Counted from the stretch's first letter, positions 1 to 25,488 are shown. The stretch: DNA of 32,000 nucleotides from Candidatus Heimdallarchaeota archaeon B3_Heim (GCA_003144275.1 NJBF01000002.1:90001-122000), one strand, 5' to 3'. Program-made: numbers and translations. The notes: generated by a model from the sequence alone, not told the origin.

Positions 1-372
1 AATGTAGGGAGTTTTCGAGTTAGTGCTCAGTTACCGCGTGTCTTAGATGTCTCAACTCCAACACTTACCCCTCCCGCGTTAGAAGGCTGGGCGAAATTCT
101 GGGATGGATTTCTGTCAGGCATGACGATTGCGGCGATAGGAGCGGCTATTGCTTCGTTCTTTGTTTTTACGTTTCTGAAAGAAAGTTGGTATGGAACCAA
201 AGCGGTTGTTTTGGATAAAGCCGCGGATGATTCTCTCTTTAAACCCCAAAGTTTGGAAAGACATGAGGATAGGTTGCAATCGCGATACTATCGCAACCAA
301 CAAAGTTACCAGAAAAAACGCACTTGGTTACAGAAAATTAAACGAATATTAGGATTTACTGATCATGAATAA
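1..372 (+). CDS. C-terminal part of a membrane-anchored protein (5' truncated by window edge)
   Basis: The frame of ORF 121..372 is open back to base 1 (NVGSFRVSAQLPRVLDVSTPTLTPPALEGWAKFWDGFLSGMTIAAIG...). It shows a Pro/Thr linker, one TM helix and a basic tail. Confidence 0.75.
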   Translation, partial: NVGSFRVSAQLPRVLDVSTPTLTPPALEGWAKFWDGFLSGMTIAAIGAAIASFFVFTFLKESWYGTKAVVLDKAADDSLFKPQSLERHEDRLQSRYYRNQQSYQKKRTWLQKIKRILGFTDHE

Positions 373-592
373 AGAGAATTTCACTTCTGCTGGGGCGCTT
401 ACCAGCGCTATTATTGGCTCTACCCTCTTAGGAGTGTTTTTGGGGTCCCGCTCTGGTGGGATTTATGAATTCGAGATTGGGAACAATTTGCTAACCCTGC
501 TTCAGCTGGTTTCAATGATATTCGCTTTAGCGTTCTGTGGTTATTTTTGGCTGGAAAACAAGAAAATATCAAAAGAGATGAAAACAAAATGA
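365..592 (+). CDS. Small two-helix hydrophobic membrane protein (75 aa)
   Basis: Two hydrophobic segments. Overlaps the upstream stop and is coupled to the next gene by ATGA at 589-592. Confidence 0.75.
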   Translation: MNKENFTSAGALTSAIIGSTLLGVFLGSRSGGIYEFEIGNNLLTLLQLVSMIFALAFCGYFWLENKKISKEMKTK

Positions 593-2115
593 TGCAACAA
601 GAACTATTTACGGACTTAGAGACCTTTTATTATTCTCTTATTGCCATGATCCAGGAAAATGCGGTTCCGTTGATCATTGGATTCGCATTTCTCTGTTATT
701 TTGGGGCCAATCAATGGCGGAAATCACGTGATTCGCAGCTCAGAAATGTGCGTGAGCATTGGAAAGCGATTACCTCCAAAGCAACAAAGATTTCCTCAGC
801 ATTTAAAGGCAGGATTGGACTCGTTGAAACGGCTGGCACCATGGAGCTGGAAGGTGATATCTATCTAATTGATTCCGTGACGAATGATGAGTTAATCGAT
901 TCTGAACGGGTGACAGCGTTACGATTAGAGCTTACACAAGAACAAATTCTCCCCAATCTAGCTGAGAATGAAATTTGTTTTGAGAAATATGAGTTTCGTG
1001 CGCGAAAAGAAAACAAGGACGGCCTTCGGATTGACATCACTAAGGGATCCCTCCAAGAACAACTACAACTACGCTTTAAGGATGAGAAGGAGGAGAAATT
1101 CCGTAAACCTGGTAATTGGGAGTTGAAGGATCGCTGGATTGTCAAAAAATTCACCCGCGTGTTGCCGACCAAAAATGATACGTATGTGTCATTAAGAAAG
1201 ACTCCAAAAGGAGGAGAAATAATTGCATTTCGGCGGCAGGGGATTCAGGAACATGAAACAATTCTCTCTGAAGCGACTCCTCTACCATTAATCGATCTCG
1301 ATCCGAATGTCACCAAGGGGCATCTTCAATTAGCTATGTTTGGATTAATCATCTATGAATTCCTGTTGATGTATACTATTTTTGCGGAACTGGATCCTAC
1401 TTTTCTGCTAGATCGAGCCACCATCCCTTGGTATTTTGTACTAGTGGTCGCGTTTGTAGGAAAATATTGGGTAGACAAAACAAAAATAGCTTATTTTGCG
1501 TATTACCGTGCGTATAGTGGTGCAGAAGAGACCTTCAAGTTGCGTGGTGTCGCAGGCGAGATTTCAACCTACACCACCAAGGTATTTGAAATTGAGTTAC
1601 ATGCCCACCCCGCCATCCCCCTAGCGAATTTACTGAAGTTTAACCCTGAAGATATCAAAGATGAGCGAATATCAGGGTTAGAACAGCGTGTCACCAATCT
1701 TAGTGCCAAGCTTGCCTCTGCCAAGTCGAAACATGATCAGTTATTATCAATTTTACAACATAAGGATCAACAATTAGATCAGTCACGAGAAAAGCATATC
1801 GAAGCATTTGATGATGGAGCCATTTTCGCGTTAACTACTTACCGAGTCAAACAACTAGAGGATGATGGAAAAACTCCGCAAGAATACGTGCAAAAACAAC
1901 AAGGGACTGATACTCTCACGTGGTTCAAAGAAATTAAACCCTTGCTTTTTCTCATTGTCATCGGGGTAGGGGCATTTTTTCTGATTACTAACTTTCTCCA
2001 ATGGTTCCAGGAGATTCAACTAGGTGGCACAGGTGAGATTTTTTCGACTCAATTCATTCTCGGCCTGATTGTCTTATCCATTATCCTATTTTTCCTATTG
2101 CGGTCATCAAAATGA
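589..2115 (+). CDS. Multi-pass membrane protein (about 5 TM) with soluble domain and coiled coil
   Basis: ORF 547..2115; probable start 589 (ATGA overlap). TM segments AVPLIIGFAFLCYFG, LAMFGLIIYEFLLMY, IPWYFVLVVAFVG and two at the C-terminus. Coiled coil LEQRVTNLSAKLASAK. Confidence 0.8.
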   Translation: MMQQELFTDLETFYYSLIAMIQENAVPLIIGFAFLCYFGANQWRKSRDSQLRNVREHWKAITSKATKISSAFKGRIGLVETAGTMELEGDIYLIDSVTNDELIDSERVTALRLELTQEQILPNLAENEICFEKYEFRARKENKDGLRIDITKGSLQEQLQLRFKDEKEEKFRKPGNWELKDRWIVKKFTRVLPTKNDTYVSLRKTPKGGEIIAFRRQGIQEHETILSEATPLPLIDLDPNVTKGHLQLAMFGLIIYEFLLMYTIFAELDPTFLLDRATIPWYFVLVVAFVGKYWVDKTKIAYFAYYRAYSGAEETFKLRGVAGEISTYTTKVFEIELHAHPAIPLANLLKFNPEDIKDERISGLEQRVTNLSAKLASAKSKHDQLLSILQHKDQQLDQSREKHIEAFDDGAIFALTTYRVKQLEDDGKTPQEYVQKQQGTDTLTWFKEIKPLLFLIVIGVGAFFLITNFLQWFQEIQLGGTGEIFSTQFILGLIVLSIILFFLLRSSK

Positions 2116-2140
2116 AAAGGATGGTATAACAAGGAGTTAA

Positions 2141-2668
2141 ATGAATAAAATGATGCGACAAGATACGTTAGCCGAATTACAGGCTTGGGCGAAAGCTGCG
2201 AAAGCTGCTGGTGAGGATATTGCACGTTCTAAAGAGGAACTCAAGCGGATCATAGACATGCTTGTCTATGACCTCATAGATGATCCCAACGAGAAGGATG
2301 AAAAGGGGAACCCCATTATTCGCGAAGTCACGGTCCAGGATATTTTCTCACATCTACTTTTGTTAGTGATGCAGGACGAGAAGTTTCGTAAAGGGGTGCC
2401 CTCAGGGCTCATTCAGAAGAATATTACCATGATCGGAATCACCCGCCGGTTTGAAAAACGGAGTTTACGGTTTTCATTTGAATTCTTGAAAGATTGTTTG
2501 AAACAAGAAATGGCTCCAATTCTGCACAAAGCATATCCTGCGTGGTCTAGTCTCACTGGTGGCGCTCAAGGACACATGGTTACCGCACTTGTGCAAAAAT
2601 CCAAAGATATCCACCGAACACCCGAGGAAGAAAATCTTCGTGCGATGTTTAAACAACCCACGGATTAA
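2141..2668 (+). CDS. Hypothetical alpha-helical protein (175 aa)
   Basis: AAGGAG RBS upstream; lies within the operon. Confidence 0.75.
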   Translation: MNKMMRQDTLAELQAWAKAAKAAGEDIARSKEELKRIIDMLVYDLIDDPNEKDEKGNPIIREVTVQDIFSHLLLLVMQDEKFRKGVPSGLIQKNITMIGITRRFEKRSLRFSFEFLKDCLKQEMAPILHKAYPAWSSLTGGAQGHMVTALVQKSKDIHRTPEEENLRAMFKQPTD

Positions 2669-2685
2669 AATAAGGTTCAAAACCC

Positions 2686-4554
2686 ATGACCGAGGCAATT
2701 ACTCAAGCGGAATTAGAGAAGGTCAGCGAGGGAGAACGAGGTGCTTATTGGACCCGTCCATTCATGCTTTTAGAGAATGATCTAATCATCCAAGAAGAAA
2801 AGAAAAAAGTCAAGCTCCGCACCGAGGGAAAACTATGGCGGAGAAATCTTACTCCTGCTCTTCTGGCTGAAGTAAATCAAGCGTATGAAAAAGGACTTAA
2901 TACAATTATTCCCTTGTCGGGACTTCCTGGGCTAGGGAAGACGGAAAGTGCTCGAGCATTAGCTGTTTTTTGTCGTGATGCTGCCGAGGAGGCTTTTGGG
3001 AGATCTAGGATTTGGTGGAATTTTGGGTTTCAAGAAACCGTGAATAACGCGGTTGACTATCAAGAGGGAGATATTGTCGAACAAGATGAAGAACAACGTG
3101 CGCAAGGGATGGATTCCAAAAGTCTTATCATTGCTATTTCAGATCTTCAGGAAATTGCATTTCGAAAGAATAAAATCACCTATATTGTGTCATCTGTGCA
3201 TGCTAAATTAGTGCGTGGAGTGGCTCATGTTATTCTTGAGGCATGGGGGGGCAATTATGAATCCAGAATTTGTTTACTAAAAGTTTATTCTGCGATAACA
3301 GGTCTTCCTCTGGGTTTTGTGAAAATTCCTCTTTTACCTGCTGATCATCCTGCGGTCATCGAACATCAAAAAAAAGAAACGACATTCAAAACAGGCATCC
3401 TAAGTCGCCATGGGTATACTTCTGTTAAAATCGATCAAAAACGCTTTCAGAGAGATATTCAAACACTCACAAAGCAAATCTTTGGGAAACATCCTGTAGA
3501 ATACTCCGATTTATCTGCTTTTGAAAAGCGCCGTATACATAGATACCAGGTTGAGAGACTCAAAACAGATCTAGTAAGAGCGGAAATAGCCGGATCTGAA
3601 CAATATCAAAAACGGGTATTGACTGAGGTATGGGCCCAAATTTTAGATTTCAAAGATTCATACAAAGATATCCTAGAACTAGCCAAAGTCGAAGACAAGC
3701 TGCAGAAAGAGGAAGAGAAACAAATGCAACACGAGGAAGAATTACAGATCATTCAAGCCCAGCGTGAAAACCTTATTCCTGAATTAGTCGAGGCGTGTGC
3801 TAACAAATATCTCCATCAAAAAACCAAGAATGTCCAAATACGGATCTTTTTTGAAGAGCGAGGTATTCATAAAGACAATTTAAACTACTGTTTGGCCAAG
3901 ACGTGGGATAGAATAATAGAGTTAGAAAATTCATTCACGGCCTCTATAGGACAGACAGGCAGACAGGCATTACAAAATGAAAACCTAGCATTCACTCTCA
4001 AGAAAAAGATCGAAGACCCTGATTTCATTAATTCCATGATTCAATGCTTTCCTCATACGACAACGAGAATTAAGACCAAGAAATTACAGGAAAAACACTT
4101 TGAAGCCTGGGTGTGGTATTACAGAGATCATACTTCAGTCGATATGTTGAAGGATCAATGGGGAATGAAATCCAAATCCACATTCACTAATACCTATGAT
4201 CAGGGAGGTTGGTTTGCTGTTGTAAAGGAAGAAATTCTTGGCCATCTAGTCGAAGACACGCTTGTAGAAACATATTATGACGGATTTCAAGTCATAGGGG
4301 GCAATACTCAACCTGATTTAGTGAAAGCTGATATCCAGGTCGAAGTTAAAGCTCGGACCCGGAGAGAACCTCCCAAAACAGACATGTTTAATCAAAATGA
4401 ACTTCAGCATGTGAAAAATGGAGGAAACTTAGAACTCTGTCTCGTCTCATTTCAACCTGGACAATGTGTGTTAGAAATATATGCCATTACTGAGATTCCA
4501 AAAGAGGACCTACCGGTCGATGACAAAAAAACGAACGTATCGGATAAAACCTGA
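2686..4554 (+). CDS. P-loop ATPase fused to C-terminal PD-(D/E)XK nuclease domain
   Basis: Walker A IIPLSGLPGLGKT; Walker B-like DIVEQDEEQ; FRKNKITYIVSS segment; central coiled coil; C-terminal QPDLVKADIQVEVK motif. Confidence 0.75.
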   Translation: MTEAITQAELEKVSEGERGAYWTRPFMLLENDLIIQEEKKKVKLRTEGKLWRRNLTPALLAEVNQAYEKGLNTIIPLSGLPGLGKTESARALAVFCRDAAEEAFGRSRIWWNFGFQETVNNAVDYQEGDIVEQDEEQRAQGMDSKSLIIAISDLQEIAFRKNKITYIVSSVHAKLVRGVAHVILEAWGGNYESRICLLKVYSAITGLPLGFVKIPLLPADHPAVIEHQKKETTFKTGILSRHGYTSVKIDQKRFQRDIQTLTKQIFGKHPVEYSDLSAFEKRRIHRYQVERLKTDLVRAEIAGSEQYQKRVLTEVWAQILDFKDSYKDILELAKVEDKLQKEEEKQMQHEEELQIIQAQRENLIPELVEACANKYLHQKTKNVQIRIFFEERGIHKDNLNYCLAKTWDRIIELENSFTASIGQTGRQALQNENLAFTLKKKIEDPDFINSMIQCFPHTTTRIKTKKLQEKHFEAWVWYYRDHTSVDMLKDQWGMKSKSTFTNTYDQGGWFAVVKEEILGHLVEDTLVETYYDGFQVIGGNTQPDLVKADIQVEVKARTRREPPKTDMFNQNELQHVKNGGNLELCLVSFQPGQCVLEIYAITEIPKEDLPVDDKKTNVSDKT

Positions 4555-4774
4555 AGAGGAAGAGAGATGCCAAAGGAGATATTATGCTTCTATTAAAGCC
4601 AAAGTCCAACATTCCGATACGGGACGCATTACACGTCTAACCTGGCATTTATGTGAATTACATTATTTTCTTTTTTTGAGAGACCAAGGCCAAGGGTATT
4701 ATACGTGGTATCCTAAACATCCTTACAAGAAGGCCTTTGCGATTGATTATCAAATATTAGGAGATATACATTAA
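4520..4774 (+). CDS. Small basic hypothetical protein, possible Zn-binding (C...LCELH)
   Basis: ORF 4481..4774; probable start MTKKR at 4520, overlapping the end of the ATPase gene. Confidence 0.5.
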   Translation: MTKKRTYRIKPEEEERCQRRYYASIKAKVQHSDTGRITRLTWHLCELHYFLFLRDQGQGYYTWYPKHPYKKAFAIDYQILGDIH

Positions 4775-5365: not shown

Positions 5366-5797
5366 TTATCTCTTCCGAAAATATTTACGAGTTTGATGCC
5401 TAAGAAAGAAAACATAACCTAAGATCATTAAACCACAAATAAATGCGGTTATCATCCCTTCTTCATAAAAGTCTTGTTCAAGAATGAGCGCAGAAACGAA
5501 AAATAACAAACCTATGAATATAAAGGGTACCAAGACAAGATTAACTCCTCCGATTTTTACAGCTAAGGTTTTATTTCCAACATATAATAGGAAATAAAAA
5601 CCACAGATATTTATCAAACAAAAAACGCTTAATATAAAGAAGCCTATCGACAAAAAAAGAAACCTCGGTGTTAAGGATTCTCTATCAAGAAAATCCCACA
5701 TAATTTGCATAACCAAGGCAAGAATCAAACCTAAAAATACTTGGTAGTTTTCTAATAGTTTTAATCGTCGTTCTAAATTAGGATATCCATTATTCAT
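5366..5797 (-). CDS. Four-TM membrane protein (143 aa)
   Basis: Four hydrophobic helices; last gene of the minus-strand ATPase/TOPRIM unit. Confidence 0.7.
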   Translation of the reverse strand: MNNGYPNLERRLKLLENYQVFLGLILALVMQIMWDFLDRESLTPRFLFLSIGFFILSVFCLINICGFYFLLYVGNKTLAVKIGGVNLVLVPFIFIGLLFFVSALILEQDFYEEGMITAFICGLMILGYVFFLRHQTRKYFRKR

Positions 5798-5898
5798 GAT
5801 ATTTTCCCAATCCTTATATTAAACTCAATGCGTTTAAATCTCCCCTCTAAGGTTGTTTTTAGCTCTAATATTCACTCTTCGTTCTCAAAATTTATTTT

Positions 5899-6420
5899 TT
5901 AGATGTATTTATTCATAAAATACCGAAAAGAAGAATTTTTTCGTTTTGCTATCTCTATTGCGTATCTCTTAAGTATCTCTACCATGAAATCTATTCTAGA
6001 ATCGAATTTTGATGGGATAATCTCATTAAAATGTTCTTTACATAAAGAATTAGTTTCGCCATAATTTGGAATATCCAGATCTTTACTGCTTTGAGGATCT
6101 AATCCTGCAAGATACCAACTCTCGATCTCCATAATAACTACTGATATTCGATCCTCGACAATACATTCATATATTTTTTTTAATGCTTCCTTTTTTTTGG
6201 GAAAACAAGGATTAACATCAATATCTGACAGGAATATATAATGAGAAGACAATTCATCGATGCTCTTCAAAAACTTCTTAATAAATTTCTTCCTCAATTG
6301 ACTATATTTGATTATTTCAATAGAATCAAATTTTTCCGTTAAAATTGGCCTTAATATAATATTGAAAAACCTTTCATCATCATTACCTTCTAGAAAGATG
6401 AAAAGCTTTTCATTCTGCAT
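5899..6420 (-). CDS. TOPRIM-like nuclease partner of ABC ATPase (DUF4435/DUF4276-like)
   Basis: LFIFLEGNDDERFF TOPRIM-type motif and EIESWYLAG. Probable start MQNEK at 6420 with GGGGTGA RBS, 5 bp after the ATPase stop. Confidence 0.7.
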   Translation of the reverse strand: MQNEKLFIFLEGNDDERFFNIILRPILTEKFDSIEIIKYSQLRKKFIKKFLKSIDELSSHYIFLSDIDVNPCFPKKKEALKKIYECIVEDRISVVIMEIESWYLAGLDPQSSKDLDIPNYGETNSLCKEHFNEIIPSKFDSRIDFMVEILKRYAIEIAKRKNSSFRYFMNKYI

Positions 6421-6424
6421 AAAT

Positions 6425-7723
6425 TCACCCCAGAAGATTTTGTACGAAAAGTTCTTCAATTCCTATTTCGTTTTTCAAAAATATTTTTACTTCTTCTTTC
6501 TCCTGGGGTTTTTTAATAATTGAAAATCCTTCTTCATCTCTTGCTATTAATAATATGCTATTTAAGTCGGCATTTCTCACTAATTCTGGATTATGTGATG
6601 TGATAATTATTTGTTTCTTTTCTGATGCCTCTCTTATGATATTTAGTATCTTAGAAATTAGGAACGGATGAATATTTCTCTCTGGTTCCTCAATGATTAT
6701 AAAGGGTTTTTCATCAAAAATTAAAGCAACAATTAATGCAGTTATATTTATTGTACCATCCGACATTAAAGATGCAGGAAAATAATGATCAACCGAGTAT
6801 TTTTCACAGTATTTTGACATCAAATATTTATCAGCAAACTTTTCAACTTGATAATTTTTAATAAATGGTAATAGATCTGTGATCAGATTAATAAATTTCC
6901 GTTCTTTTTCTTTATCTTGTAGAATATTGTTCAAGACAATAGCTAAATTACTCCCATTTGGCTCTAATTCTCTTTTACCTGTAAAGGGAACTGCATTTTT
7001 AGGTAATTTTGGATCAAAATCATAAATAGAGATACTTCGAAATAGTTTATCCAAATTGGCAAACCCTCGAAAAATATGGGGATTTTCTATTAGAAGACTC
7101 TGAAACGGAACCTCCCCTTGTAACATTTCTTTTTCAAGACCAGCAATACTGATTATTCCTACCCTCGACCGAATTTCTTCTTCATTAATAATTAATTCAT
7201 AAGATAATTTTCCCTTTCTTTGGAATAGAATCAATTCACATGAACCAATTGGTTTCTCTTCCTGAAGTGTGAAACCCTCTTCTTCATCTTTAGGCTTAAA
7301 TATCAATTCATTGAGTCTGCAGTTCAATGTTAAACTATCTTTAACAATACTAAAATCTCCATTTTTTCCGTTGAAACCTAAAGAAAATTCATAGTCAAAT
7401 TCGGACGCTTCTAGTCCATAATAATTAACATCTTCGGTGTTTTCACTTCTACCAAAGGTTCTAAAGGCGAATTCACCAGTAATTCTAATGTTTAGGTTCT
7501 CTGATGAACCAATTTTAATATTTCTGACGAATTCAACATCCCCTTGCATAGATAGAGCATTACACAACCCAAAATTTGCTATGTCGCTTAAAAATTTAAA
7601 AATTTGTATGAAATTTGATTTTCCAGAAGCATTCGCCCCAATTACAACTGAAATATCTTCAAGATCAACTTTTACATCCTTAAAGCTCTTAAAATTTGTA
7701 ACTCTGATTTTCTTAATTTTCAA
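6425..7723 (-). CDS. ABC-type/AAA_21-like ATPase of OLD/PARIS-type defence modules
   Basis: IRVTNFKSF start; Walker A GANASGKS; signature-like LMSDGT; Walker B IIIEEPERNIHP; H-loop IITSHN; TTG start. Confidence 0.88.
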   Translation of the reverse strand: MKIKKIRVTNFKSFKDVKVDLEDISVVIGANASGKSNFIQIFKFLSDIANFGLCNALSMQGDVEFVRNIKIGSSENLNIRITGEFAFRTFGRSENTEDVNYYGLEASEFDYEFSLGFNGKNGDFSIVKDSLTLNCRLNELIFKPKDEEEGFTLQEEKPIGSCELILFQRKGKLSYELIINEEEIRSRVGIISIAGLEKEMLQGEVPFQSLLIENPHIFRGFANLDKLFRSISIYDFDPKLPKNAVPFTGKRELEPNGSNLAIVLNNILQDKEKERKFINLITDLLPFIKNYQVEKFADKYLMSKYCEKYSVDHYFPASLMSDGTINITALIVALIFDEKPFIIIEEPERNIHPFLISKILNIIREASEKKQIIITSHNPELVRNADLNSILLIARDEEGFSIIKKPQEKEEVKIFLKNEIGIEELFVQNLLG

Positions 7724-7918
7724 AGTAGATTCTCCAACTAATATTATATAACTAGAAATTTAAAATACCCAAACATCCAACTCTGTTAACTGAAAGGTAG
7801 ACTTCAATATTCTAATTAGAAAATTACTTCTTATAAATTTTCATTAGAATTTATTTCTTTATGATGCAAAATTAAAATTCCCACTATAATCTTATTAGCA
7901 AGTGTTACCAAGTGGTTT

Positions 7919-7959
7919 TCTGAGTATTTCGCAAAATGAGCCTTTTACGACGTTTTTTT
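7919..7959 (+). repeat. Dispersed repeat B, copy 1
   Basis: TCTGAGTATTTCG-CAAAATGAGCCTTTTACGACGTTTTT aligns with 22920-22959. Confidence 0.7.
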
Positions 7960-7995
7960 ATTCGATTTTATATGAGGGAAGTTAACCTTTTCTAC

Positions 7996-8295
7996 CTAAG
8001 GTAGATGACCATTTGCTTGTAAATCGACCAAATATTGCGAAAGAGTATAAGGACAATCTAAAAACTCGTTAAATTGATTCCCACCATCCATTTTCAGATC
8101 TCTTGCCATTAACTTCCTCAATTTTCCTGAAATACTTCCTTTCCTTGTATGACTAATCTTAGTTCGGATATGAGTAATCTTACCATTTACGACTAATTCA
8201 AAGATCCTATGATTCTTACGTCCCTTTTTTTCTCGAAATCCTTTTCTGTTAAGAGCACGACTAGCTTGAGTATTAGTGTAGGTTTTAGGTGTCAT
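7996..8295 (-). CDS. HicA-like (dsRBD-fold) mRNA interferase toxin
   Basis: Basic 99 aa; ALNRKGF...KNHRIFEL...TKISH pattern typical of HicA-like toxins. Directly downstream of a gene with a HicB-like domain. Confidence 0.65.
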   Translation of the reverse strand: MTPKTYTNTQASRALNRKGFREKKGRKNHRIFELVVNGKITHIRTKISHTRKGSISGKLRKLMARDLKMDGGNQFNEFLDCPYTLSQYLVDLQANGHLP

Positions 8296-8297
8296 TT

Positions 8298-9329
8298 TTA
8301 TTCCTCATTGATATAATCGGGAAGTGCTTGTTTTACATGCTTCATTCGCTCTGATAACTTCTCGTCAGAGGTAGTTAGGATATGATCCATCAAATATCCC
8401 ATTTCAATTTCAAATTCCTCTTTCAATCCTTGATAAGTCTCTGAATAGAGTGTTAGTTCCAATTCAGGCAAAGTAGCCACGTAAAAATCGCCATCGAAGT
8501 CAAGATCTAGTTCAACTGGTTTACTTAGAAAGGGAAATTCGCTGGGTAACATATTAGTAGTCTCTAATATGTCTAAATCTTGAATACTTACGGCAACTCT
8601 CTGTTTTTTGTGTTTTTCAAAAATTCCCTCAATATAAACTGGTTTTTTCACATTGGTAATGACTTTTTCCTCTAATTCATCATCCAAAGAGCATCTTACA
8701 CCCGTGGAACCTACTTCTTGGATATAAAAATATGGTGACGGACCATCAATTCGAAGTCTGGTAATCACACCTACCAACCGTTGAGAAATTTGCTTTAATT
8801 CGGCATTCAACCATCTGGGAATTCTTGGTTGAAACGAAATATCCAATCTCTCTTTGTAGATAAGTTCTTGTTGATATTTTGCTTTATAATCTACTCTCAC
8901 CTCTTTTGTTGGCCAGAGAGTCTTTAAATTCCCTAAGATACGTATTCGTTGATCTCTATCAGGGTAAGTATCAACTATTTTTTGAACTCCGTCCTCTTCT
9001 TTCTCAAATTTCACAGCATTAATCGTTTCAAAGAATTTAGTGACAACTGGTTCCATATAAGGACGTCCCTCCAAAGTCATTTGAGCAGAAGTTCTTAATT
9101 TACAAACAGCAGATCCACCTTTGAATTCAGTAAAAACCAATTGTAAATTTCTCTTATACTCGTCTTGTTTTATTTTAGCCCTCGGTTTACGTAGAACTGT
9201 TTGAGCTACGTTATGAAATAAATGTTGAGTTCTGACAAGAAATTTCCCCAGAACCTCGGCAGGAATCTCTTTCACTCCAATATTTTCCCCAGCAATTTCC
9301 ATCCAAATTTCATACAATAAACAACCCAC
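8298..9329 (-). CDS. Extended antitoxin: N-terminal domain + OB-fold-like region + C-terminal HicB-like domain
   Basis: C-terminal DGDFYVATLPELELTLYSETYQGLKEEFE resembles the HicB partial RNase H fold. GTG start with AAGGAG RBS. Two bp from the HicA-like gene. Confidence 0.6.
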   Translation of the reverse strand: MGCLLYEIWMEIAGENIGVKEIPAEVLGKFLVRTQHLFHNVAQTVLRKPRAKIKQDEYKRNLQLVFTEFKGGSAVCKLRTSAQMTLEGRPYMEPVVTKFFETINAVKFEKEEDGVQKIVDTYPDRDQRIRILGNLKTLWPTKEVRVDYKAKYQQELIYKERLDISFQPRIPRWLNAELKQISQRLVGVITRLRIDGPSPYFYIQEVGSTGVRCSLDDELEEKVITNVKKPVYIEGIFEKHKKQRVAVSIQDLDILETTNMLPSEFPFLSKPVELDLDFDGDFYVATLPELELTLYSETYQGLKEEFEIEMGYLMDHILTTSDEKLSERMKHVKQALPDYINEE

Positions 9330-9929
9330 CAGTCTCCTTTATTTCTCCGGTAATCTCCTTGAAAAAACCCTAATTTCTGGCCTCTTTTTAATAGTTCGTT
9401 TTGGAGCAGAAATTGCTACTCAAAAATGAGTAATTAGGAGGAAAATGTTTCTTTCCAGCAAAACATCGGTTTACTGGCATTTTACGACTTTTGAAGTATT
9501 AAACCAAAACCCACTCTTGAAGTATTACTGCAAAACTTATCCCTCGGATGAAATCATTTCAAAGAAATTACTCCCCCAGGATACTAACCGTTTTTGAAAT
9601 AGAGTCTTCTCCTGCTTTTTTGAAAATTATAAAATCTAGTACTATGACAAATGTATAGTTCCTGGAAATGACAGGCGGAGGAGGTATTTCTCTAAATTCC
9701 CTGAAAGAAAATTTTTAGACGCTTCTTGTGCAGTATCCCTTCAATCCTTCTTACTTTTCTCTGTTAAATTAGTAGTTCAATATTTCATCTCAATGGAAGA
9801 GAACCAGCACTTCTACGAACGAAAAAAACGATTTTATTACTCTGACGAAATGCTTGCTCAATTCAGAGGAACTGAACATGATCAGACAATACTTAATCTC
9901 CTCTGTTATTTCTTCTAAACTCTCCCTCT

Positions 9930-10040
9930 ATGGGAATAAATACCCGAGAAAAACTTACAGGAAATGGTGCTGCGCAAGAATACTCTTTGGGCGCTTTTAT
10001 TGAGTATTGTAAACAGCTCCTTTCTCAGAAGGAAAAATAA
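9930..10040 (+). other. 36-codon ORF or gene remnant containing dispersed repeat A (SLGAFIEYCKQL)
   Basis: Nucleotides about 9984-10025 match about 22784-22826; the aligned reading is SLxAFIEYCKQL in both copies. Confidence 0.4.
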
Positions 10041-10085
10041 ATAGAAATTACTGTGTTTTTAATTTAATAAGAGATTTTTGTCTTT

Positions 10086-10934
10086 CTATTTTATTTCTTC
10101 TTGAACTTGATTGCTGTTTCGATCTATGAGATACACTAGGCCCAATAGAAATCCAAATAGTGCCCCAAATATATGGGCAAGTAGTGGATGCCCTCTTGAC
10201 AAAGGAAACGGTATTCCTACACCCTCAACGAACGCATAAAGATATGTAAGAGTATATGTAAACATCAAAAAATCCGCTACCAACCTTTCATAGAATATGA
10301 AAGAAGTAAATACAATTGCTACAGAATTTATTAACAAAAAAATCCAATTTTCTTTAAAAGTCTGTTTTAACAAATCAAGATTACGATGGTATAGATCACG
10401 TGCATTCCGAACTATAAAAAGAATGAAATAATACCCTGCTAGAACAAAACTAAAACCTGAAAGACCCATAATAGCATTTGAAGCCCCACCACCTCCCGTG
10501 GAAAACAAATGAAAATCTCCTATAATAATAACACCCTGTGCAGTCGCCCAAGTTACATAACGTTCTGTGAGGGTAGCATTCATGAAACTCACAAAGATCC
10601 CCAGAAAAATACTCGTTAAAATTCCAGAAAGTAAAAACACGATTACCATGTTTTTCCGTGATGTTTGAATGCTCACTATATAACCAAAAACTATTATTCC
10701 AGTAGTATTATTCAAAATGTGGTAACCTTGATCATCCAAATCATGGATCCACATGTTTGTGAAAAACCCGAAAGGATTATCGGATTTATGCTCTAATAGG
10801 TCATAAATGGGAGGGCAAAATAGAATCAAAAAATAAACAACCCATATAATCACAACAATCGCAACGATTGCTGGAAAAGGACGTAATAGAGGATTTTTCT
10901 TCAAATACTCCATAATGTTTTTTCTTCTATTCAT
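10086..10934 (-). CDS. Rhomboid-family intramembrane serine protease
   Basis: Multi-TM. FTNMWIH...HILNN motif, GASNA (GxSx catalytic Ser) and AHIFGALFG (catalytic His). Confidence 0.85.
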   Translation of the reverse strand: MNRRKNIMEYLKKNPLLRPFPAIVAIVVIIWVVYFLILFCPPIYDLLEHKSDNPFGFFTNMWIHDLDDQGYHILNNTTGIIVFGYIVSIQTSRKNMVIVFLLSGILTSIFLGIFVSFMNATLTERYVTWATAQGVIIIGDFHLFSTGGGGASNAIMGLSGFSFVLAGYYFILFIVRNARDLYHRNLDLLKQTFKENWIFLLINSVAIVFTSFIFYERLVADFLMFTYTLTYLYAFVEGVGIPFPLSRGHPLLAHIFGALFGFLLGLVYLIDRNSNQVQEEIK

Positions 10935-10981
10935 AATGATAATCCATTCAATGAGGGTGCCTTTTGAATTGTTCGTGAGAG

Positions 10982-11034
10982 GACATCGAGAAACAATGCA
11001 ATAAACAGAATGACTTCATAGGGAGGCATTCTCT
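10982..11034 (+). repeat. Dispersed repeat C, copy 2
   Basis: GACATCGAGAAACAA-tgc-AATAAACAGAATG, then hairpin AGAATG-a-CTTC-atag-GGAG-g-CATTCT. Confidence 0.8.
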
Positions 11035-11316
11035 TCATCCTTTTTTGCGACAAATAATAAAAACCGATAATTTACGAAAAAGCCCTCCTCTCTCATCAGG
11101 TTCTTTAGCATAAGTCTGAATAGTTGAGGTCACTTCATGACCCAATTTCAATTTCTCAAATTCACTTTCAGTTAATTCTAGTGTAATATTACTTTTTAAC
11201 ATTTAAATCACAATTAAGTAAGAAATAATTGAGTTTAAAGCTTTTACTGTTAGGAGCTTCCTTGTAGTAGCTTTAAAATATTGACTTTTTACCAGGATCT
11301 CAAAAAAAACTTCCCA

Positions 11317-11589
11317 CTATGTAACTATAATATAAATTAAAAATTGCTGGACCAAGACCTGGAGAACTTTTCGCTCCCTGGGAGTGATAAACTTTGAACA
11401 GATACATAAACTCCCAACATATCCTTTATGAAAACTGCAATAAACAGAAAAACGGCCAATAGGAGGATCCTTATTTTTATGATCTGCATACTTACAAAGC
11501 CAGCAAAGATCCACATACCGATAATGGTAGTCCTTTTTCAACATCTTTGTAAAAGCATTTTTTTCTTCCAACCTAAGGACTCTTTTCAA
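11317..11589 (-). CDS. Small Cys/His-rich putative Zn-binding protein
   Basis: CWLC...YCSFH...CICSKF pattern. Confidence 0.55.
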   Translation of the reverse strand: MKRVLRLEEKNAFTKMLKKDYHYRYVDLCWLCKYADHKNKDPPIGRFSVYCSFHKGYVGSLCICSKFITPRERKVLQVLVQQFLIYIIVT

Positions 11590-11704
11590 ACAAAAATAAG
11601 AATTTTTTTTAGCCTTGTTTTTTTATCCTAAGGATGGTTTTACTTCGCTATATTTTAATATCTCTTTTTCTACTATAAGATTGCAATTTTAATGAGGAAT
11701 CCAA

Positions 11705-13090
11705 ATGGGGAAAAATCCTTCAAATAATGAGAAAAAGGAAATATTCAGTTTAAAATCTATATTTCCTCAAGCCCACGAGGTATTTTCAATAAATCTTGAA
11801 TCACTTGATAAGCTAAAAGATAGTTGTCTTTTTGTGTTGGATACAAATGCTTTACTTGTCCCTTATAAGATTAAACAAGAGAGCTTGGATCAAATTGAAC
11901 AAACTTTTAGATGTCTAATCGATGCAAACCGACTTATTATTCCAGGGAGAGTAGCTAGAGAATTTGCGATACATCGACCCAAACAGATCTGTGAAATTTT
12001 TCATCATTTAAGTCAAAGAAAGAAGACTCAAAAACTTAAAATAGGAACCTATCCGTTGCTGGAATCTCTTGAAAATTATGATAAATTAAAGAGTATTCAA
12101 AAGGAAATTAATCAGAATATTAGTGAATATAGAAAAACAATCTCTTTATTGCTTTCTCAAATCCAAGGATGGACCTGGAATGATCCTGTCAGTCTGATTT
12201 ATAATCAAATTTTTTCAAAAGAAGTCATAGAAGACCCTGAATTCGATCCCAAAAAGATTGAAGAAGATTTAAAGCGAAGAATTCAACACAGGATTCCTCC
12301 TGGATATAAAGACTCTTCCAAACCAGATAAAGGTGTGGGTGATTTACTTATATGGTATACGATTCTTGAAATTGGAAAACGAGAGAAGAAAAATGTTGTC
12401 TTCGTTTCTGGTGATGTCAAGGCTGATTGGTGGCATCAAAGTGATAATAATCCTATTTATCCCAGATATGAACTTGTAGAGGAGTTTAGAAACCATTCTG
12501 GCGGATTTAATTTTCATATTGTCCAATTTTCAGAGTTTTTAGACCTAGTTGGAGTACCTGGTAAGGTGATTGATGAAGTAAGAAGAGCAGAAATTACAGT
12601 TTCAGGAATCGCAGTTTCAGATTTAGCAATTATGAAAACCGTTGAAGGTATGAAAGCTGAAGAATCTGTCTACAGATGGTATAATAAAAAAATTTCAGAT
12701 GCAAGATCAATAATATCTGATATTCCACCATTTAGTTTCATTATAGAGCACTCTGATGGTTATATAGAGGGAGTAATTGTGAAATACCTGAATGCCACTA
12801 TAACTGCAAGTTTGAATCTTCAAGATGTTATAGAAAAGATATTTTTAAATTTTATATCACTGGATACGTCTATTGCGAACAGATATACCTTGATATTCAC
12901 TACCAGCAGTGAAGAAGACATAAAAAGAGTTCACTTCCTCTTTAAAAGTTTAAAATCGGAAAAAACACAGAAAGAAGAATATGCTGAATGGTTGAGATGG
13001 CCAAGTATCTCACCCAGATTTTCTTTTATATTTGGTGTTAGAGATGAGGATTCCAATTTTTATCCCCATTTTGATGATTCTTACGATTAA
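11705..13090 (+). CDS. PIN-like domain ribonuclease (DUF4935/PIN_8-like) with C-terminal extension
   Basis: FVLDTNALL, VAREF, PPGYKD...GDLLIWYTIL and FVSGDVKADWW motifs. Confidence 0.82.
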   Translation: MGKNPSNNEKKEIFSLKSIFPQAHEVFSINLESLDKLKDSCLFVLDTNALLVPYKIKQESLDQIEQTFRCLIDANRLIIPGRVAREFAIHRPKQICEIFHHLSQRKKTQKLKIGTYPLLESLENYDKLKSIQKEINQNISEYRKTISLLLSQIQGWTWNDPVSLIYNQIFSKEVIEDPEFDPKKIEEDLKRRIQHRIPPGYKDSSKPDKGVGDLLIWYTILEIGKREKKNVVFVSGDVKADWWHQSDNNPIYPRYELVEEFRNHSGGFNFHIVQFSEFLDLVGVPGKVIDEVRRAEITVSGIAVSDLAIMKTVEGMKAEESVYRWYNKKISDARSIISDIPPFSFIIEHSDGYIEGVIVKYLNATITASLNLQDVIEKIFLNFISLDTSIANRYTLIFTTSSEEDIKRVHFLFKSLKSEKTQKEEYAEWLRWPSISPRFSFIFGVRDEDSNFYPHFDDSYD

Positions 13091-15221: not shown

Positions 15222-16124
15222 ATGCAAAATACTACACTCCGAAAAAGAAGAAGTCTGACAGTTTTTCCTGTCGTTTTTCTCTTTTTTCTCTCGGTTCTGG
15301 TGCCTGTGCTCGCGTCCCCCTATACTGCGGAAATCACCACGCTCACCCCCACTATTGATACCTCGACCTCTTCAACCTATGAAAAAACCATTGGCGTGAA
15401 GCTGATCTGGCGGATCAATTACGATAAAAGCCTCGAGAATTTTTCCACTATTTACAGCTATGTTTACTGCAAAGTGTCAGGCAAAAGCCCTATTTTAGCG
15501 GCGAGTCAAGTGACGGAAGGTGGATCTACTTATTGGTATACCAATTATACCTCGATTACCGAGACCCTGACATTAAATATCGATGAAGACTCGGTGGCTG
15601 GGCAAGATCTTTCTTCCGATGTGAAGATTGCGATCTATGCCGAACTCTACAATAATTCGATATCCGCGGCTAATAAGCTAACTTCCAAGACCGCATCGAT
15701 TTCCTATGGCAGTTTAGTGGGAGAAGAAGCCGCTGAGACCGCTGACAGGGGTCTCTGGGATTATGCGCTTTTAATCCTCATGGGTCTCGGCGCATTCGTA
15801 GTGCTCGTGTTTATCATCCTGGCTGGACAGCGGTATGTCATACCATGGCTAGGCTTAAGTTCCCCTCCCCGTAATACGTTAGATTATGGGGATCGAACAA
15901 AATGGGCTGAGCGGTATGGCCCTCGTGACAAAGAAGTTCTACAGGGTAAAAAGAAAGCTGGACAGTTCAAAGACATCGTTGATCCAGGACGCTCTCGGCG
16001 TATAGACCAGAGACAAACGCATCTTCACGGGAGAAAACCAGGGCAACTGCGACGATCACCTTCGAATCCCCGCAAAAAGATTCCTGACGCGGACCGACGT
16101 CCTCCGAAAGGGAAAAAGTGGTAA
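15222..16124 (+). CDS. Type I membrane protein: signal peptide, beta-rich ectodomain, TM, very basic cytoplasmic tail
   Basis: Hydrophobic leader ending VLA-S; Thr/Tyr-rich ectodomain with sequons NFS, NYT, NNS; TM ALLILMGLGAFVVLVFIILAG; R/K-rich tail. Confidence 0.75.
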   Translation: MQNTTLRKRRSLTVFPVVFLFFLSVLVPVLASPYTAEITTLTPTIDTSTSSTYEKTIGVKLIWRINYDKSLENFSTIYSYVYCKVSGKSPILAASQVTEGGSTYWYTNYTSITETLTLNIDEDSVAGQDLSSDVKIAIYAELYNNSISAANKLTSKTASISYGSLVGEEAAETADRGLWDYALLILMGLGAFVVLVFIILAGQRYVIPWLGLSSPPRNTLDYGDRTKWAERYGPRDKEVLQGKKKAGQFKDIVDPGRSRRIDQRQTHLHGRKPGQLRRSPSNPRKKIPDADRRPPKGKKW

Positions 16125-16127
16125 TTA

Positions 16128-16161
16128 TCTCCCTTTTTTCTTTTTCCCTCTTTATTTCCCA
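16128..16161 (+). terminator. Pyrimidine/oligo-T tract, archaeal-type terminator
   Basis: ATCTCCCTTTTTTCTTTTTCCCTCTTTATTTCCC directly after the stop at 16124. Confidence 0.45.
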
Positions 16162-16183
16162 TTATTGGAGGTCTGTCTAAGCC

Positions 16184-16615
16184 ATGTTTGAGTCTTTCAA
16201 AGAAAAAGTGCTTTCTGTTCCCAGAGGTGCTATGCTAGTGCCTAAACGCTTGTATAAGACCCTCATTACCTCAAAAGGAATTCTGACTACCGAGCGCGGC
16301 AAAGTGAACATTCACAAGAAAGAAGCGTTTTTTACACGCGAAGAAATCCTCAAAATGGAATCTAGAGCTCAAAGATTCCATGAACGAATTCAATCCGATC
16401 AAGTGGGTCTTCCTATTACTTTTGAAGAATTTGAACGCCTAGAAAGACGATCTGAATGGGATGAACTGCGGACCAAAAAAAAGAGTGGGACCCGGGTCAC
16501 TCTCTTAGCCACGGGATCCGAAGTGAAACGAGGTCTGAAACGGTCTGGTGTGATTCCTGGCTCCCGAAGGAAATCATTGAAACCTCCTCCTACTCAACTC
16601 AAACTGACTGACTGA
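16184..16615 (+). CDS. Basic hypothetical protein (143 aa), first gene of effector-like array
   Basis: GGAGG RBS; N-terminal VLSVPR resembles the array motif. Confidence 0.7.
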   Translation: MFESFKEKVLSVPRGAMLVPKRLYKTLITSKGILTTERGKVNIHKKEAFFTREEILKMESRAQRFHERIQSDQVGLPITFEEFERLERRSEWDELRTKKKSGTRVTLLATGSEVKRGLKRSGVIPGSRRKSLKPPPTQLKLTD

Positions 16616-23470: not shown

Positions 23471-24280
23471 GTGTCAATGATAATTGAAGACTTAACAATT
23501 TTAGGCCGAGCTGCACCTGATTTAATGAAAAGTAAAATGGTTAAAACATTTTGTGTTGCAGGATATTCTCCATCTAGGGGTTTCATTAGAGTGTATCCTA
23601 CGTCTATTGATTGCCCTATGAAATTTTGGAACGTTGTTAGGGTTCCATTAGAGCGAAATCTTCAAGATAGTAGGTTTGAAAGCTGGAAAATTCAAGGTTC
23701 AAAATCCGAATGGGATAATCTTGATAGTAAAATCGAAGAAATTGGTACATATCCCAAAAAAGAAAGACGACAACTTGTTTTCAATCTTGTTGATGGTTGC
23801 CGTAATGATATTAACGATGCCCATAGGAGTTTGGGAATTATTAAGCCCACAAAAATTAAGGGTTACTTTCAGGAACGAGAAAAAATATCAGAAAGCGAAC
23901 AAAAAACTCTTTTAGACTTTTTAGATATTCCAAAACCTAAAAATCATTGGATTAAAACAAAAGCTGAATATCAATTCATACCTTATATTAAATATACTTG
24001 TTCTGACTGTAAATCCAAGCAAGGGTATCATAATCAACAATTGCTTTCTATTGAAGCTTACGAATGGATGCGGAAACACCCTGATAATCTTGATCAACTT
24101 TGGGAGAATTTTCGAATCAATGATAAAGATTACGATGCATATTTATTCATTGGTAATCAAGCTCGTCGTCGAAACGCGTTTATGGTAATTAGTATTTTGA
24201 GATTCAAAAAATCTAATTATTCATTGTCACGGACAAGACCATTAATCCCTTGGAAAAAAGTAGAAAAACCCAAATCATAG
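23471..24280 (+). CDS. OB-fold/Zn-ribbon-like protein of the family commonly found next to DUF488
   Basis: FCVAGYS..RGFIRVYP, DSRFESWKI, SLGIIKP, YTCSDC...HN and LFIGNQ motifs; paralog of 26006. Confidence 0.6.
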   Translation: MSMIIEDLTILGRAAPDLMKSKMVKTFCVAGYSPSRGFIRVYPTSIDCPMKFWNVVRVPLERNLQDSRFESWKIQGSKSEWDNLDSKIEEIGTYPKKERRQLVFNLVDGCRNDINDAHRSLGIIKPTKIKGYFQEREKISESEQKTLLDFLDIPKPKNHWIKTKAEYQFIPYIKYTCSDCKSKQGYHNQQLLSIEAYEWMRKHPDNLDQLWENFRINDKDYDAYLFIGNQARRRNAFMVISILRFKKSNYSLSRTRPLIPWKKVEKPKS

Positions 24281-24315
24281 TTGTAAAAAGGATCTTCAGA
24301 CGGTCTTTAAAGAAG

Positions 24316-25488
24316 ATGGATTGGCAAATTGTGAGTCGTCGCCAAACAAAAGCTCTAGATGATTTTTTAAATAATTCTAAACGAGAAATTAGAAGAGGAA
24401 GTGTGGTATCAGGAATGAGAATTAAAATTACAAATATAGTTATACCGTGGTATGCACCACGTGAAGAAGTTGATAAGGAATTTCTTGGTGAATTAGCTGT
24501 AAGTATGGATAAGGATGGGCAATGGGATGATATAATCCTTCGTCATAATGAAGCTGGGGAATATGAACTCATCTCAGGTTTTCAAAGGCTTAATGCTGCG
24601 AAATCTTTGAAGTGGGAAGAAATTAATGCTAAAGTTCTCGATATAACAGAGAATGATGCAGCAGTTATGGCGTTAGAAAGTAATATTCTTCGTAGAGGAT
24701 TAAAAGAGATTGAAGAAGGGAAAGCAATTCAGAAAATGATTGACAAATATGGATATACACATAAACAGGTTGCAGAGAGATTAAGAAAAAGCCAAAACTG
24801 GATTAGTAATAGACTATCTTTGGCAATGGATATAACAGACTTAGTAAAAAAGGCTATGATTGATCAAAAACTATCTGTTACTCAAGCCATTGAAATTGGA
24901 AAACTTTCAAAAAAAGACCAAGATAAATTTTTGGCCATTGTTCTTAAGAAAGTTGAAGAAAACGATGGGAGGCCAATTTCTGTAGAAGAAACTAGAATTC
25001 TCCGTAAGCGTTTTACAAATGATACTATTTTTACAATTGGTTATAGTGGATGGGACATTGATGATTTTTTAAACACACTTAAAGATAATAAGATAGGTGT
25101 TTTAGTTGATATTAGAGAAAGTACAAAGTCCCAACGAAAACCTGAATTTAGTGGACGATTATTAGAAAAAAGAGTTAAGGAACTTGGTATAAAATACTTC
25201 GGTAGACCACAACTAGGGGTTCCTTGGGATATCCGTGCGGCAGTTTTTGAAAATGGCTTATCGTCTAATTGTTTTAAAGAATGGTACATTTGGCACGTTA
25301 CAAAAAGAGACGAGAAAAACAAAGCATTTGAAACAGCCAGAGAATTAAAAGATGTTGGAGCTCCCGCTTTCATGTGTATGGAACGTTATCCAAAACCGAG
25401 CGGAAAACAGGAACATTACTGTCACCGTGACTTTTTAGCTGAATTGATACTAAAGGAACAAATCTTTGAGAAACGAATCGATTTATGA
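24316..25488 (+). CDS. ParB/Srx + HTH fused to C-terminal DUF488 domain
   Basis: YELISGFQRLNAAK and ALESNILRRGL (ParB); AERLRKSQNWIS (HTH); TIFTIGYSG, LVDIR, LG..MCME and CHR (DUF488). ORF is open from 24250; 24316 is the probable start. Confidence 0.8.
   Translation: MDWQIVSRRQTKALDDFLNNSKREIRRGSVVSGMRIKITNIVIPWYAPREEVDKEFLGELAVSMDKDGQWDDIILRHNEAGEYELISGFQRLNAAKSLKWEEINAKVLDITENDAAVMALESNILRRGLKEIEEGKAIQKMIDKYGYTHKQVAERLRKSQNWISNRLSLAMDITDLVKKAMIDQKLSVTQAIEIGKLSKKDQDKFLAIVLKKVEENDGRPISVEETRILRKRFTNDTIFTIGYSGWDIDDFLNTLKDNKIGVLVDIRESTKSQRKPEFSGRLLEKRVKELGIKYFGRPQLGVPWDIRAAVFENGLSSNCFKEWYIWHVTKRDEKNKAFETARELKDVGAPAFMCMERYPKPSGKQEHYCHRDFLAELILKEQIFEKRIDL

Follow-up and report, generated by a model that had tools for sequence, protein, structure and literature searches.

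The stretch analysed here (the window) comprises 32,000 nucleotides of Candidatus Heimdallarchaeota archaeon B3_Heim (NJBF01000002.1:90001-122000; C80:90001-122000 in our numbering), an Asgard archaeon of the Heimdall group with a 3.9-Mb, 94%-complete genome. At window positions 589-4554 it carries three plus-strand open reading frames (ORFs) with short gaps between them. These encode a 508-residue membrane protein (TM510), a 175-residue soluble protein (p175) and a 622-residue protein (p622) in which a P-loop ATPase is joined to a helix-turn-helix (HTH) region and a PD-(D/E)XK nuclease domain. The TM510 frame begins with ATG, and an alternative longer frame starts from a TTG at 547. The gene block has a GC content of 42% compared with 36% for the genome. 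TM510, p175 and p622 gave no above-threshold match in Pfam, PHROGs or PADLOC. What appears to be new here is the fusion of an HTH and a PD-(D/E)XK nuclease to an ATPase that probably belongs with the conserved ATPase of the modules of spindle-shaped and wyrd-type archaeal viruses; in neither of two Asgard-virus papers searched for nucleases is one reported on this ATPase. An earlier note, made from the sequence alone, had described a multispanning membrane protein, a 175-residue protein and a 622-residue protein at this position; all three ORFs were confirmed on the plus strand, with five hydrophobic segments in the 508-residue product. Coordinates are collected in Table 1.

Table 1. Genes of the block and domains of p622, in window coordinates.
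Feature	Position	Strand	Remarks
C-terminal end of 1781-aa giant surface/adhesin-like protein, membrane-anchored	1..372	+	frame open at window start; first visible gene of the module
75-aa protein with two hydrophobic helices	365..592	+	between adhesin and 508-aa gene; transmembrane segments 8-27 and 38-63
TM510, 508-aa membrane protein	589..2115	+	one N-terminal transmembrane segment, two transmembrane hairpins and two large loops, by hydropathy
p175, 175-aa soluble protein	2141..2668	+	directly upstream of the ATPase gene; no transmembrane segment; isoelectric point 8.6
p622, 622-aa ATPase-HTH-nuclease protein	2686..4554	+	4 close and 165 distant relatives; AlphaFold2 model, pLDDT 91.5
P-loop ATPase domain of p622, ASCE/AAA+-like (residues 50-245)	2833..3420	+	Walker A G79-T86, Walker B D134-E135; R160 conserved
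Long single helix of p622 (residues 305-374)	3598..3807	+	model pLDDT 92-96; rich in E, K and Q
HTH region of p622 (residues 447-505)	4024..4200	+	model helices; conserved block
PD-(D/E)XK nuclease domain of p622 (residues 506-604)	4201..4497	+	E523, D544, E553, K555
76-aa basic protein	4544..4774	+	overlaps the end of the p622 gene; last conserved gene of the block; isoelectric point 8.9

An AlphaFold model of p622 built from 5 sequences had a predicted local distance difference test score (pLDDT) of 57, and a model built from 134 sequences a score of 91.5. Residues G79, G84, K85, D134, R160 and G210 were at least 90% conserved among 89-134 relatives. The features of an additional strand catalytic glutamate (ASCE) ATPase are present: Walker A, Walker B and, in the model, a strand at 109-113 between strands 74-78 and 130-134. 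The Walker motifs named in the earlier note were upheld, and their key residues are conserved. Its RK-containing segment may correspond either to a basic stretch at residues 38-52, ahead of the domain, or to the conserved R160. Helices spanning 222-298 come after the ATPase core in the model. Residues 305-374 form one 70-residue helix in the high-confidence model, at the place where a coiled coil had been claimed; a coiled-coil or oligomerisation arm is a possible role for it. The HTH region was modelled as helices 447-461, 469-481, 485-492 and 498-501, with a conserved block around A474 and W475 and a GGW at 507-509. Among family members, HTH-related matches comprised Sigma70_r4_2 in one protein and a small-terminase PHROG in two.

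The nuclease motif of p622 consists of P543-D544, eight residues and E553-V554-K555 (PD-x8-EVK). Residues E523, D544, E553 and K555 were invariant in 40 relatives whose aligned C-terminal domains are 18-57% identical, which is far beyond chance. The model places E523 in a helix (509-529), D544 at strand 545-547 and E553 and K555 in strand 550-557, followed by a helix (570-577) and strands 581-590 and 593-603, giving the order helix, strand, strand, helix, strand, strand. Both the residue order, E...(P)D...(D/E)-x-K, and the predicted core fold are those of a PD-(D/E)XK nuclease. The earlier note was right about the motif and wrong about its spacing, which it gave as nine residues; its remark that the nuclease is unlike the RNase H type of head-tail terminases agrees with this assignment.

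The best nuclease matches of the first, low-confidence model (pLDDT 57) were archaeal Hjc resolvases, at a probability of 0.6-0.77 and a non-significant E of 0.1-0.4; HincII and a splicing endonuclease were also matched (probability up to 0.77, E at least 0.1). A PDB sequence search with full-length and nuclease profiles returned only matches at E >= 0.065. The p622 domain and archaeal Hjc have in common a minimal PD-(D/E)XK fold of about 100 residues with the pattern E...PD...E-x-K, and are 22-26% identical in the structural matches. They differ in that Hjc is a stand-alone dimer whereas the p622 domain comes after an ATPase and an HTH in a single chain. Because the Hjc matches are not significant and the Pfam Hjc model (PF01870) does not match p622 residues 495-610 at E <= 10, the domain is called a minimal Hjc-like PD-(D/E)XK nuclease, predicted to lie outside the Hjc family. 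PF01870 also gave no match anywhere in the host genome at E <= 0.01, and the only Hjc-like nuclease domain seen in that genome was the one fused to p622. Kinship to the SSV1 D244 nuclease was considered and rejected (hhalign 0.2%).

Close relatives of p622 are rare: only four, at 44-87% identity, were found among 5.8 billion clustered proteins. A profile of the close relatives recovered 165 proteins from 1.8 billion representatives, 89 of them at E <= 1e-10. Domain hidden Markov models (HMMs) were built and then scored on 155 family proteins. ATPase, HTH and nuclease were recognised together in 34 proteins, ATPase and nuclease in 13, HTH and/or nuclease without a recognised ATPase in 18, and the ATPase only in 90. 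The ATPase-nuclease fusion reported in the earlier note is thus real and, being found in 47 of the 155, is by this profile-based tally a stable architecture in the family. Several proteins scored as ATPase only (520-700 aa) end in an HTH and a variant PD...S-x-K motif, and short ATPase-only forms of 335-364 aa also occur. A subset of family members carries N-terminal C2H2 zinc fingers.

Family matches (E <= 1e-8) were present in 17 of 400 Asgard genomes and in none of 21 genomes of the same genus. Because of these counts the sporadic spread is, as judged from sequence matches, the pattern of a mobile element. Degenerate-pattern scans of IMG/VR and of GTDB genome contigs turned up no close relatives, and neither p622 nor the 75-aa protein had a meaningful tblastn match among the INPHARED phages. 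Three family members sit on contigs of 2-4.5 kb, which are too short for gene context.

One family member belongs to a putative virus that has been studied experimentally. The closed 3.3-Mb genome G038 contains a family gene at C1:15746-17707 (profile match 15755-16603, E 2.6e-48), and around this gene, at C1:927, 29323 and 31430, lie the sites of the PCR primers with which Wu et al. (2022) proved that the putative virus HeimV1 integrates and circularises (PMC8813620). G038 was on that ground confirmed as Ca. Heimdallarchaeum endolithica PR6, and the gene as a gene of HeimV1. HeimV1 is 30 kb long and CRISPR-targeted and is integrated beside a tRNA; it excises, and its circular form replicates in both directions from a defined origin (PMC8813620). 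Experimental evidence of replication exists for very few Asgard viruses, of which HeimV1 is one. The family gene is not discussed in the text of the HeimV1 paper (PMC8813620). Its 653-aa product follows a 1822-aa anchored protein, a 518-aa multispanning membrane protein and small genes, as p622 does in its own block, and both elements are integrated. A ParB/Noc-like protein is also common to the two: over 160 aa, the ParB_N, HTH_ParB and DUF488 fusion encoded at window positions 24250-25488 has 31% identity with a HeimV1 protein of 809 aa (L017:5959-8388), apparently the one that Wu et al. discuss as a Noc/ParB-like CTPase. Upstream of the window, at L059:5681-6169, a further, separate DUF488 protein is encoded. 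HeimV1 differs in that homology is recognisable only in the ATPase part; its other module proteins are not detectably similar, except for a weak match of the multispanning protein. All contexts in which homologs were seen, HeimV1 and the sporadic Asgard genomes included, are mobile and virus-like; this is in keeping with the earlier note, which had named homologs outside virus-like contexts as a ground for refutation.

The order giant protein, 71-75-aa transmembrane (TM) protein, 510-520-aa TM protein, 175-194-aa protein and ATPase was found on every contig with a close relative. A more general order, in which a giant protein with signal and anchor is followed by about five small or membrane genes and the ATPase, recurs in L001, L004, L005, HeimV1, G053, G059, the P0012 contig, L039 and L040. 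The giant protein before the ATPase is 1460-1890 aa long in HeimV1, G053, G059, L039 and L040/L041, and those of L039 and L040 carry Laminin_G_3. In the window the start of the giant gene lies upstream, and a TM segment spans residues 36-61 of the part within it; the 1781-aa product is 65-67% identical to a 1635-aa protein in the equivalent position of L001. The 75-aa protein is 77% identical to the product of a 71-aa gene in the same position of L004, and L005 also has a 71-aa gene there. At the far end of the block, the 76-aa protein is 87% identical to that of a 76-aa gene in the same overlapping position of L001.

Distant members occur on two contig families, L039 (51 kb) and L040/L041 (35 kb, on nine contigs), which look viral; they contain long one-directional arrays of small genes together with Cas4, DUF5131, GP88 and a DUF5658 protein. 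In L039 the DUF5658 protein (138-449) is directly upstream of the giant Laminin_G_3 protein, and the SSV1 gene at 7122-7430 is annotated DUF5658, a second small link to the fuselloviruses. One further Asgard genome (G251), from another family within the phylum, has family ATPases on three small contigs (C280, C404 and C565; L060, L061 and L062). These ATPases are complete at 335-364 aa or form a 549-aa frame open at the contig end, and none matches the nuclease HMM. Each is preceded by a dense array of small proteins with two to five TM segments and by a C-terminally anchored protein of 351-359 aa. The three contigs are possibly several related small viruses binned together.

The gene order matches the wyrdvirus layout described in the preprint by Medvedeva et al. 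(bioRxiv 10.1101/2021.07.29.453957), namely a His1-like major capsid protein (MCP), a LamG/neurexin-like adhesin, five to six genes and an AAA+ ATPase without a TM segment, which those authors call pI-like. The survey of gene neighbourhoods bore out a link to membrane and adhesin genes, in line with the membrane module proposed in the earlier note. Small two-helix proteins, a giant LamG-type adhesin, about five uncharacterised genes and a TM-less ATPase are common to both, and wyrdviruses likewise have Asgard hosts; the likeness is one of gene order. Multiple zinc-finger proteins, also described in the preprint (bioRxiv 10.1101/2021.07.29.453957), find a parallel in the C2H2 zinc fingers that are common among family members. 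Wyrdviruses differ in size (about 15 kb, compared with 30-60 kb for the elements here) and in their His1-like capsid gene, which was not detected here. A nuclease or HTH on the wyrdvirus ATPase is not mentioned in the text or in the WyrdV3-V7 rows of Table S5 part 4 (bioRxiv 10.1101/2021.07.29.453957). The His1_capsid model (PF25665) matched nothing in the source genome at E <= 1 and nothing over its cut-off in the 400 Asgard genomes; this model may be too narrow, as the published wyrdvirus MCPs were found by HHsearch. BLASTP gave no similarity between the 75-aa protein and the His1 capsid protein VP21.

The ATPase domain was classified by profile comparison and by fold. The PHROG most often matched by family members was phrog_5484 (8 of 89, best E 1.5e-5), which includes SSV1 B251 (5e-101) and His1 ORF16 (3e-62). 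In hhalign, the ATPase-domain profile matched His1 ORF16 best of all proteins tried (96.3%, E 1.8e-9), followed by SSV1 B251 at 94.4%; HRPV-1 VP8 reached 18%, PRD1 P9 17%, M13 pI 3.7% and an ABC ATPase 1%. A Walker B context of K-x-G-D-x-h-h-x-D-E is common to the p622 family and His1 ORF16. AAA-type Pfam models were matched by few members (PF00004 by 5 of 89, nSTAND3 by 10 of 89), with P0007 scoring 21.6 bits against a cut-off of 21.2. On these comparisons the domain is best described as AAA+-like, with the spindle-virus ATPases as its probable nearest viral relatives and His1 ORF16 as best single match by a small margin, given that cellular AAA+-like ORFs reached 90-94% in the hhalign control. 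The earlier note had held that grouping with cellular AAA+ motors would count against its reading; the viral match is slightly higher, but the cellular proteins are almost as similar, and the test was not cleanly passed.

Fold comparison leaves the class undecided, and the sequence is more telling. Foldseek against the PDB placed the N-domain of Zot (2r2a) first (E 1.8e-4, TM-score 0.47 by target), followed by RuvB-like proteins, KaiC, FtsH and Rad51. The BFVD matches were a mix of picorna-like 2C, Zot, A32-like and FtsK-like proteins, and DnaA and an origin recognition complex (ORC) protein were also among the fold matches, with scores like those of other ATPases. RecA had the highest Z in fold scoring, with scores that tell neither it nor RuvB apart from the remaining ASCE ATPases. 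In the wide structure searches with the p622 model the ATPase domain filled the match lists and left the C-terminal domains uncovered.

The likeness to Zot/pI (PF05707; M13 gene I) proposed in the earlier note has in its favour the first place of 2r2a in Foldseek and Zot-annotated viral clusters among unscored language-model Atlas neighbours. It found no backing in sequence: Pfam Zot matched 0 of 89 members and a Zot-like PHROG 1 of 89, and the hhalign value of 3.7% was obtained against a single M13 pI sequence. In addition, p622 lacks the C-terminal TM anchor of pI, and pI lacks an HTH or nuclease. The FtsK-HerA class (PRD1 P9, STIV2 B204), also put forward there, fared no better than RecA or AAA+: PRD1 P9 scored low in hhalign, as given above, fold scores were no better than for unrelated ASCE classes, and no double-jelly-roll capsid gene was seen. 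SSV1 B251 and His1 ORF16 are, like p622, AAA+-like P-loop ATPases without a TM segment, and ORF16 also has a C-terminal HTH. They differ in size (251 and 308 aa) and in lacking a coiled-coil arm and a nuclease. For B251, as for p622, function is unsettled between replication and packaging; for the B251/ORF16 ATPase this has been so for decades. The family ties the elements studied here to spindle-shaped archaeal viruses by gene order and, weakly, by sequence.

Hydropathy gave five hydrophobic segments for TM510 (17-36, 246-268, 272-290, 446-473 and 481-508) and none for p175 or p622. The four segments after the first pair as two hairpins and leave two large loops, 37-245 and 291-445, the second of which contains a heptad-like stretch. 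Because basic residues follow TM1 and TM3, both loops are probably cytoplasmic by the positive-inside rule, and TM510 could plausibly dock a soluble ATPase at the membrane. A complex prediction of TM510 (37-445) with p622 (1-440), run without controls, scored 0.00 and speaks neither for nor against binding. Homologs of TM510 in the same gene order were 51-87% identical in L001, L004 and L005 and 21-25% identical in L002; those of p175 were 36-91% identical in L001, L004 and L005. At the equivalent positions of HeimV1, G059, L039 and L040 no homologs of either protein were detectable, with the sole exception of the 518-aa multispanning protein of HeimV1 (hhalign probability 29.5% to TM510). Proteins of like size and hydropathy occupy these positions in the distant elements without detectable similarity.

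We read the block, tentatively and at a probability somewhat short of even, as the far end of a morphogenetic module that belongs to an integrated HeimV1-like virus, with p622 as the enzyme that handles DNA during assembly. The AAA+-like ATPase, probably oligomeric, would be powered by ATP hydrolysis, and the HTH would recognise the DNA of the element. The small Hjc-like nuclease would cut or debranch this DNA during its hand-over to a membrane-bound assembly site made of the giant adhesin, the 75-aa two-helix protein and TM510. TM510 would be the likeliest dock, through its large loops, and p175 an accessory. Such a scheme would have p622 act at the membrane and make a terminase-like cut, coupled to packaging. 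It builds on what the data do show, namely the domain architecture, the conserved catalytic residues, the mobile-element context and the recurring gene order. The interpretation in the earlier note is partly upheld by these: they favour a virus-linked motor plus cutter whose nuclease differs from that of terminases, but do not establish kinship to Zot or FtsK-HerA or action at the membrane. The fused HTH and the active-looking nuclease, both predicted, point to DNA as the substrate of this ATPase lineage. In HeimV1 and its relatives no capsid, packaging or maturation gene has been recognised, and the family offers a testable candidate for the DNA-handling step of assembly.

Several observations weigh against this reading. 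Conservation of TM510 and p175 is confined to close relatives. Cellular P-loop ORFs of this genome, of which the best 34 were compared, reach 94.4% in hhalign, the value of SSV1 B251, and p622 itself matches no PHROG, phrog_5484 included. The C-terminus of the HeimV1 copy is divergent and partly of low complexity and shows no clear nuclease motif, which means that the lineage can do without the nuclease. A terminase-style cutting of concatemers is also not an obvious need for HeimV1, whose circular replication starts at a defined origin. Neither in the element nor in HeimV1 could a capsid gene be recognised. Finally, the replication initiators DnaA and Orc1/Cdc6 likewise have an AAA+ domain with an HTH behind it.

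This last point leads to the main rival, that p622 is a replication initiator in which a DnaA- or Orc1/Cdc6-like AAA+ domain and HTH read the origin and the nuclease nicks or processes it. The model has ATPase, lid helices and HTH in initiator order, SSV1 B251, which the satellite pSSVx carries as well, has a DnaA-like annotation, and the fold matches noted above include DnaA and an ORC protein, if at scores similar to other ATPases. No initiator is named for the defined origin from which HeimV1 replicates bidirectionally (PMC8813620). Against this rival, the gene is tied to the adhesin/membrane block in every element examined, and not to replication genes. PD-(D/E)XK nucleases are not known to serve as initiator nickases. 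His1 encodes a type-B DNA polymerase, described in the wyrdvirus preprint as protein-primed (bioRxiv 10.1101/2021.07.29.453957), yet also has ORF16, which disfavours an initiator role for the ATPase lineage. According to the same source, the wyrdvirus ATPase, likened to p622 by gene order, stays in the morphogenetic block while the replication module swaps between a protein-primed polymerase and a rolling-circle Rep. An initiator is in our view unlikely.

Rather improbable, too, is a RuvB/RecA-like motor joined to an Hjc-like resolvase that would resolve Holliday junctions, dimers or integration/excision intermediates on its own, without a role in particle loading. Hjc resolvases were the best nuclease matches of the first model, and a host genome in which PF01870 is not found could leave room for such an activity; but the Pfam Hjc model does not match p622, fold scores do not set RuvB or RecA apart from other ASCE ATPases, and the conserved place at the end of a structural block is left unexplained. 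If debranching were coupled to packaging, this explanation would overlap with the assembly reading preferred here. That p622 is cargo, a nuclease-ATPase for defence, counter-defence or host takeover, seems very improbable. ATPase-nuclease fusions are common in defence systems, and a defence block with HEC-01/AriA-AriB-like and PIN_8 genes lies directly downstream at 5.4-13.1 kb. Against this, no PADLOC model matches p622, p175 or TM510, the gene is in the high-GC core and not in the low-GC defence insert, and its place beside structural genes is kept in elements without that defence block.

Set beside a large terminase, p622 has the same plan, an N-terminal ASCE ATPase and a C-terminal nuclease in one polypeptide, together with a DNA-recognition element, in its case the fused HTH. 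The parts are different: the terminase nuclease is RNase H-like whereas that of p622 is PD-(D/E)XK, and the p622 ATPase is not of the terminase type, a terminase PHROG being touched by 3 of 89 members and Pfam terminase models by none. No portal or HK97 capsid gene was recognisable in the element. A bolder form of the assembly reading is that the family is an independently evolved terminase analogue, an AAA+ motor with an HTH and an Hjc-like nuclease, which would be docked at the membrane and would load cut or debranched double-stranded DNA into the membrane-bounded virions, without a conventional capsid, of HeimV1-like and wyrdvirus-like viruses. This form we regard as doubtful, if well worth entertaining. 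Were it true, viruses would have a third way to package their genomes, in addition to the terminase/RNase H and FtsK-HerA systems; a packaging motor that brings its own cutter would amount to a terminase-like solution assembled from parts of unrelated origin.

Further features of the element lie on either side of the gene block. A tRNA-Leu(CAG) is located to the left of the element at C80:63512-63598, and a tyrosine integrase (PF00589, E 4.9e-30) is encoded at C80:131589-132083, about 9.6 kb past the right end of the window. The ends of the element are left unset: when the integrase region (C80:125-135 kb) was compared with the tRNA-Leu region (C80:63.5 kb) and with the left flank, no att-type direct repeats of 14-18 bp or more turned up. 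A 105-aa protein with two TM segments is encoded directly upstream of the first giant gene, at L059:9581-9898 (window -10419 to -10102), and has a sub-threshold match to the octameric membrane family 8xMP (PF24838; 23.1 bits, cut-off 30). Near the right end of the window, a 1008-aa ORF (28094-31120, minus strand) has a faint match to DUF7932 as its sole family match. The two higher-GC parts of the element are split by a low-GC (29-36%) accessory block at window positions 5366-13090, mostly on the minus strand. It contains an ABC-type ATPase (6425-7723; AAA_21/AAA_15) whose best PADLOC match is HEC-01A, with AriA also matched, a small TOPRIM/DUF4276-like partner of HEC-01/AriB type (5899-6459), and a PIN_8 protein on the plus strand (11705-13090).

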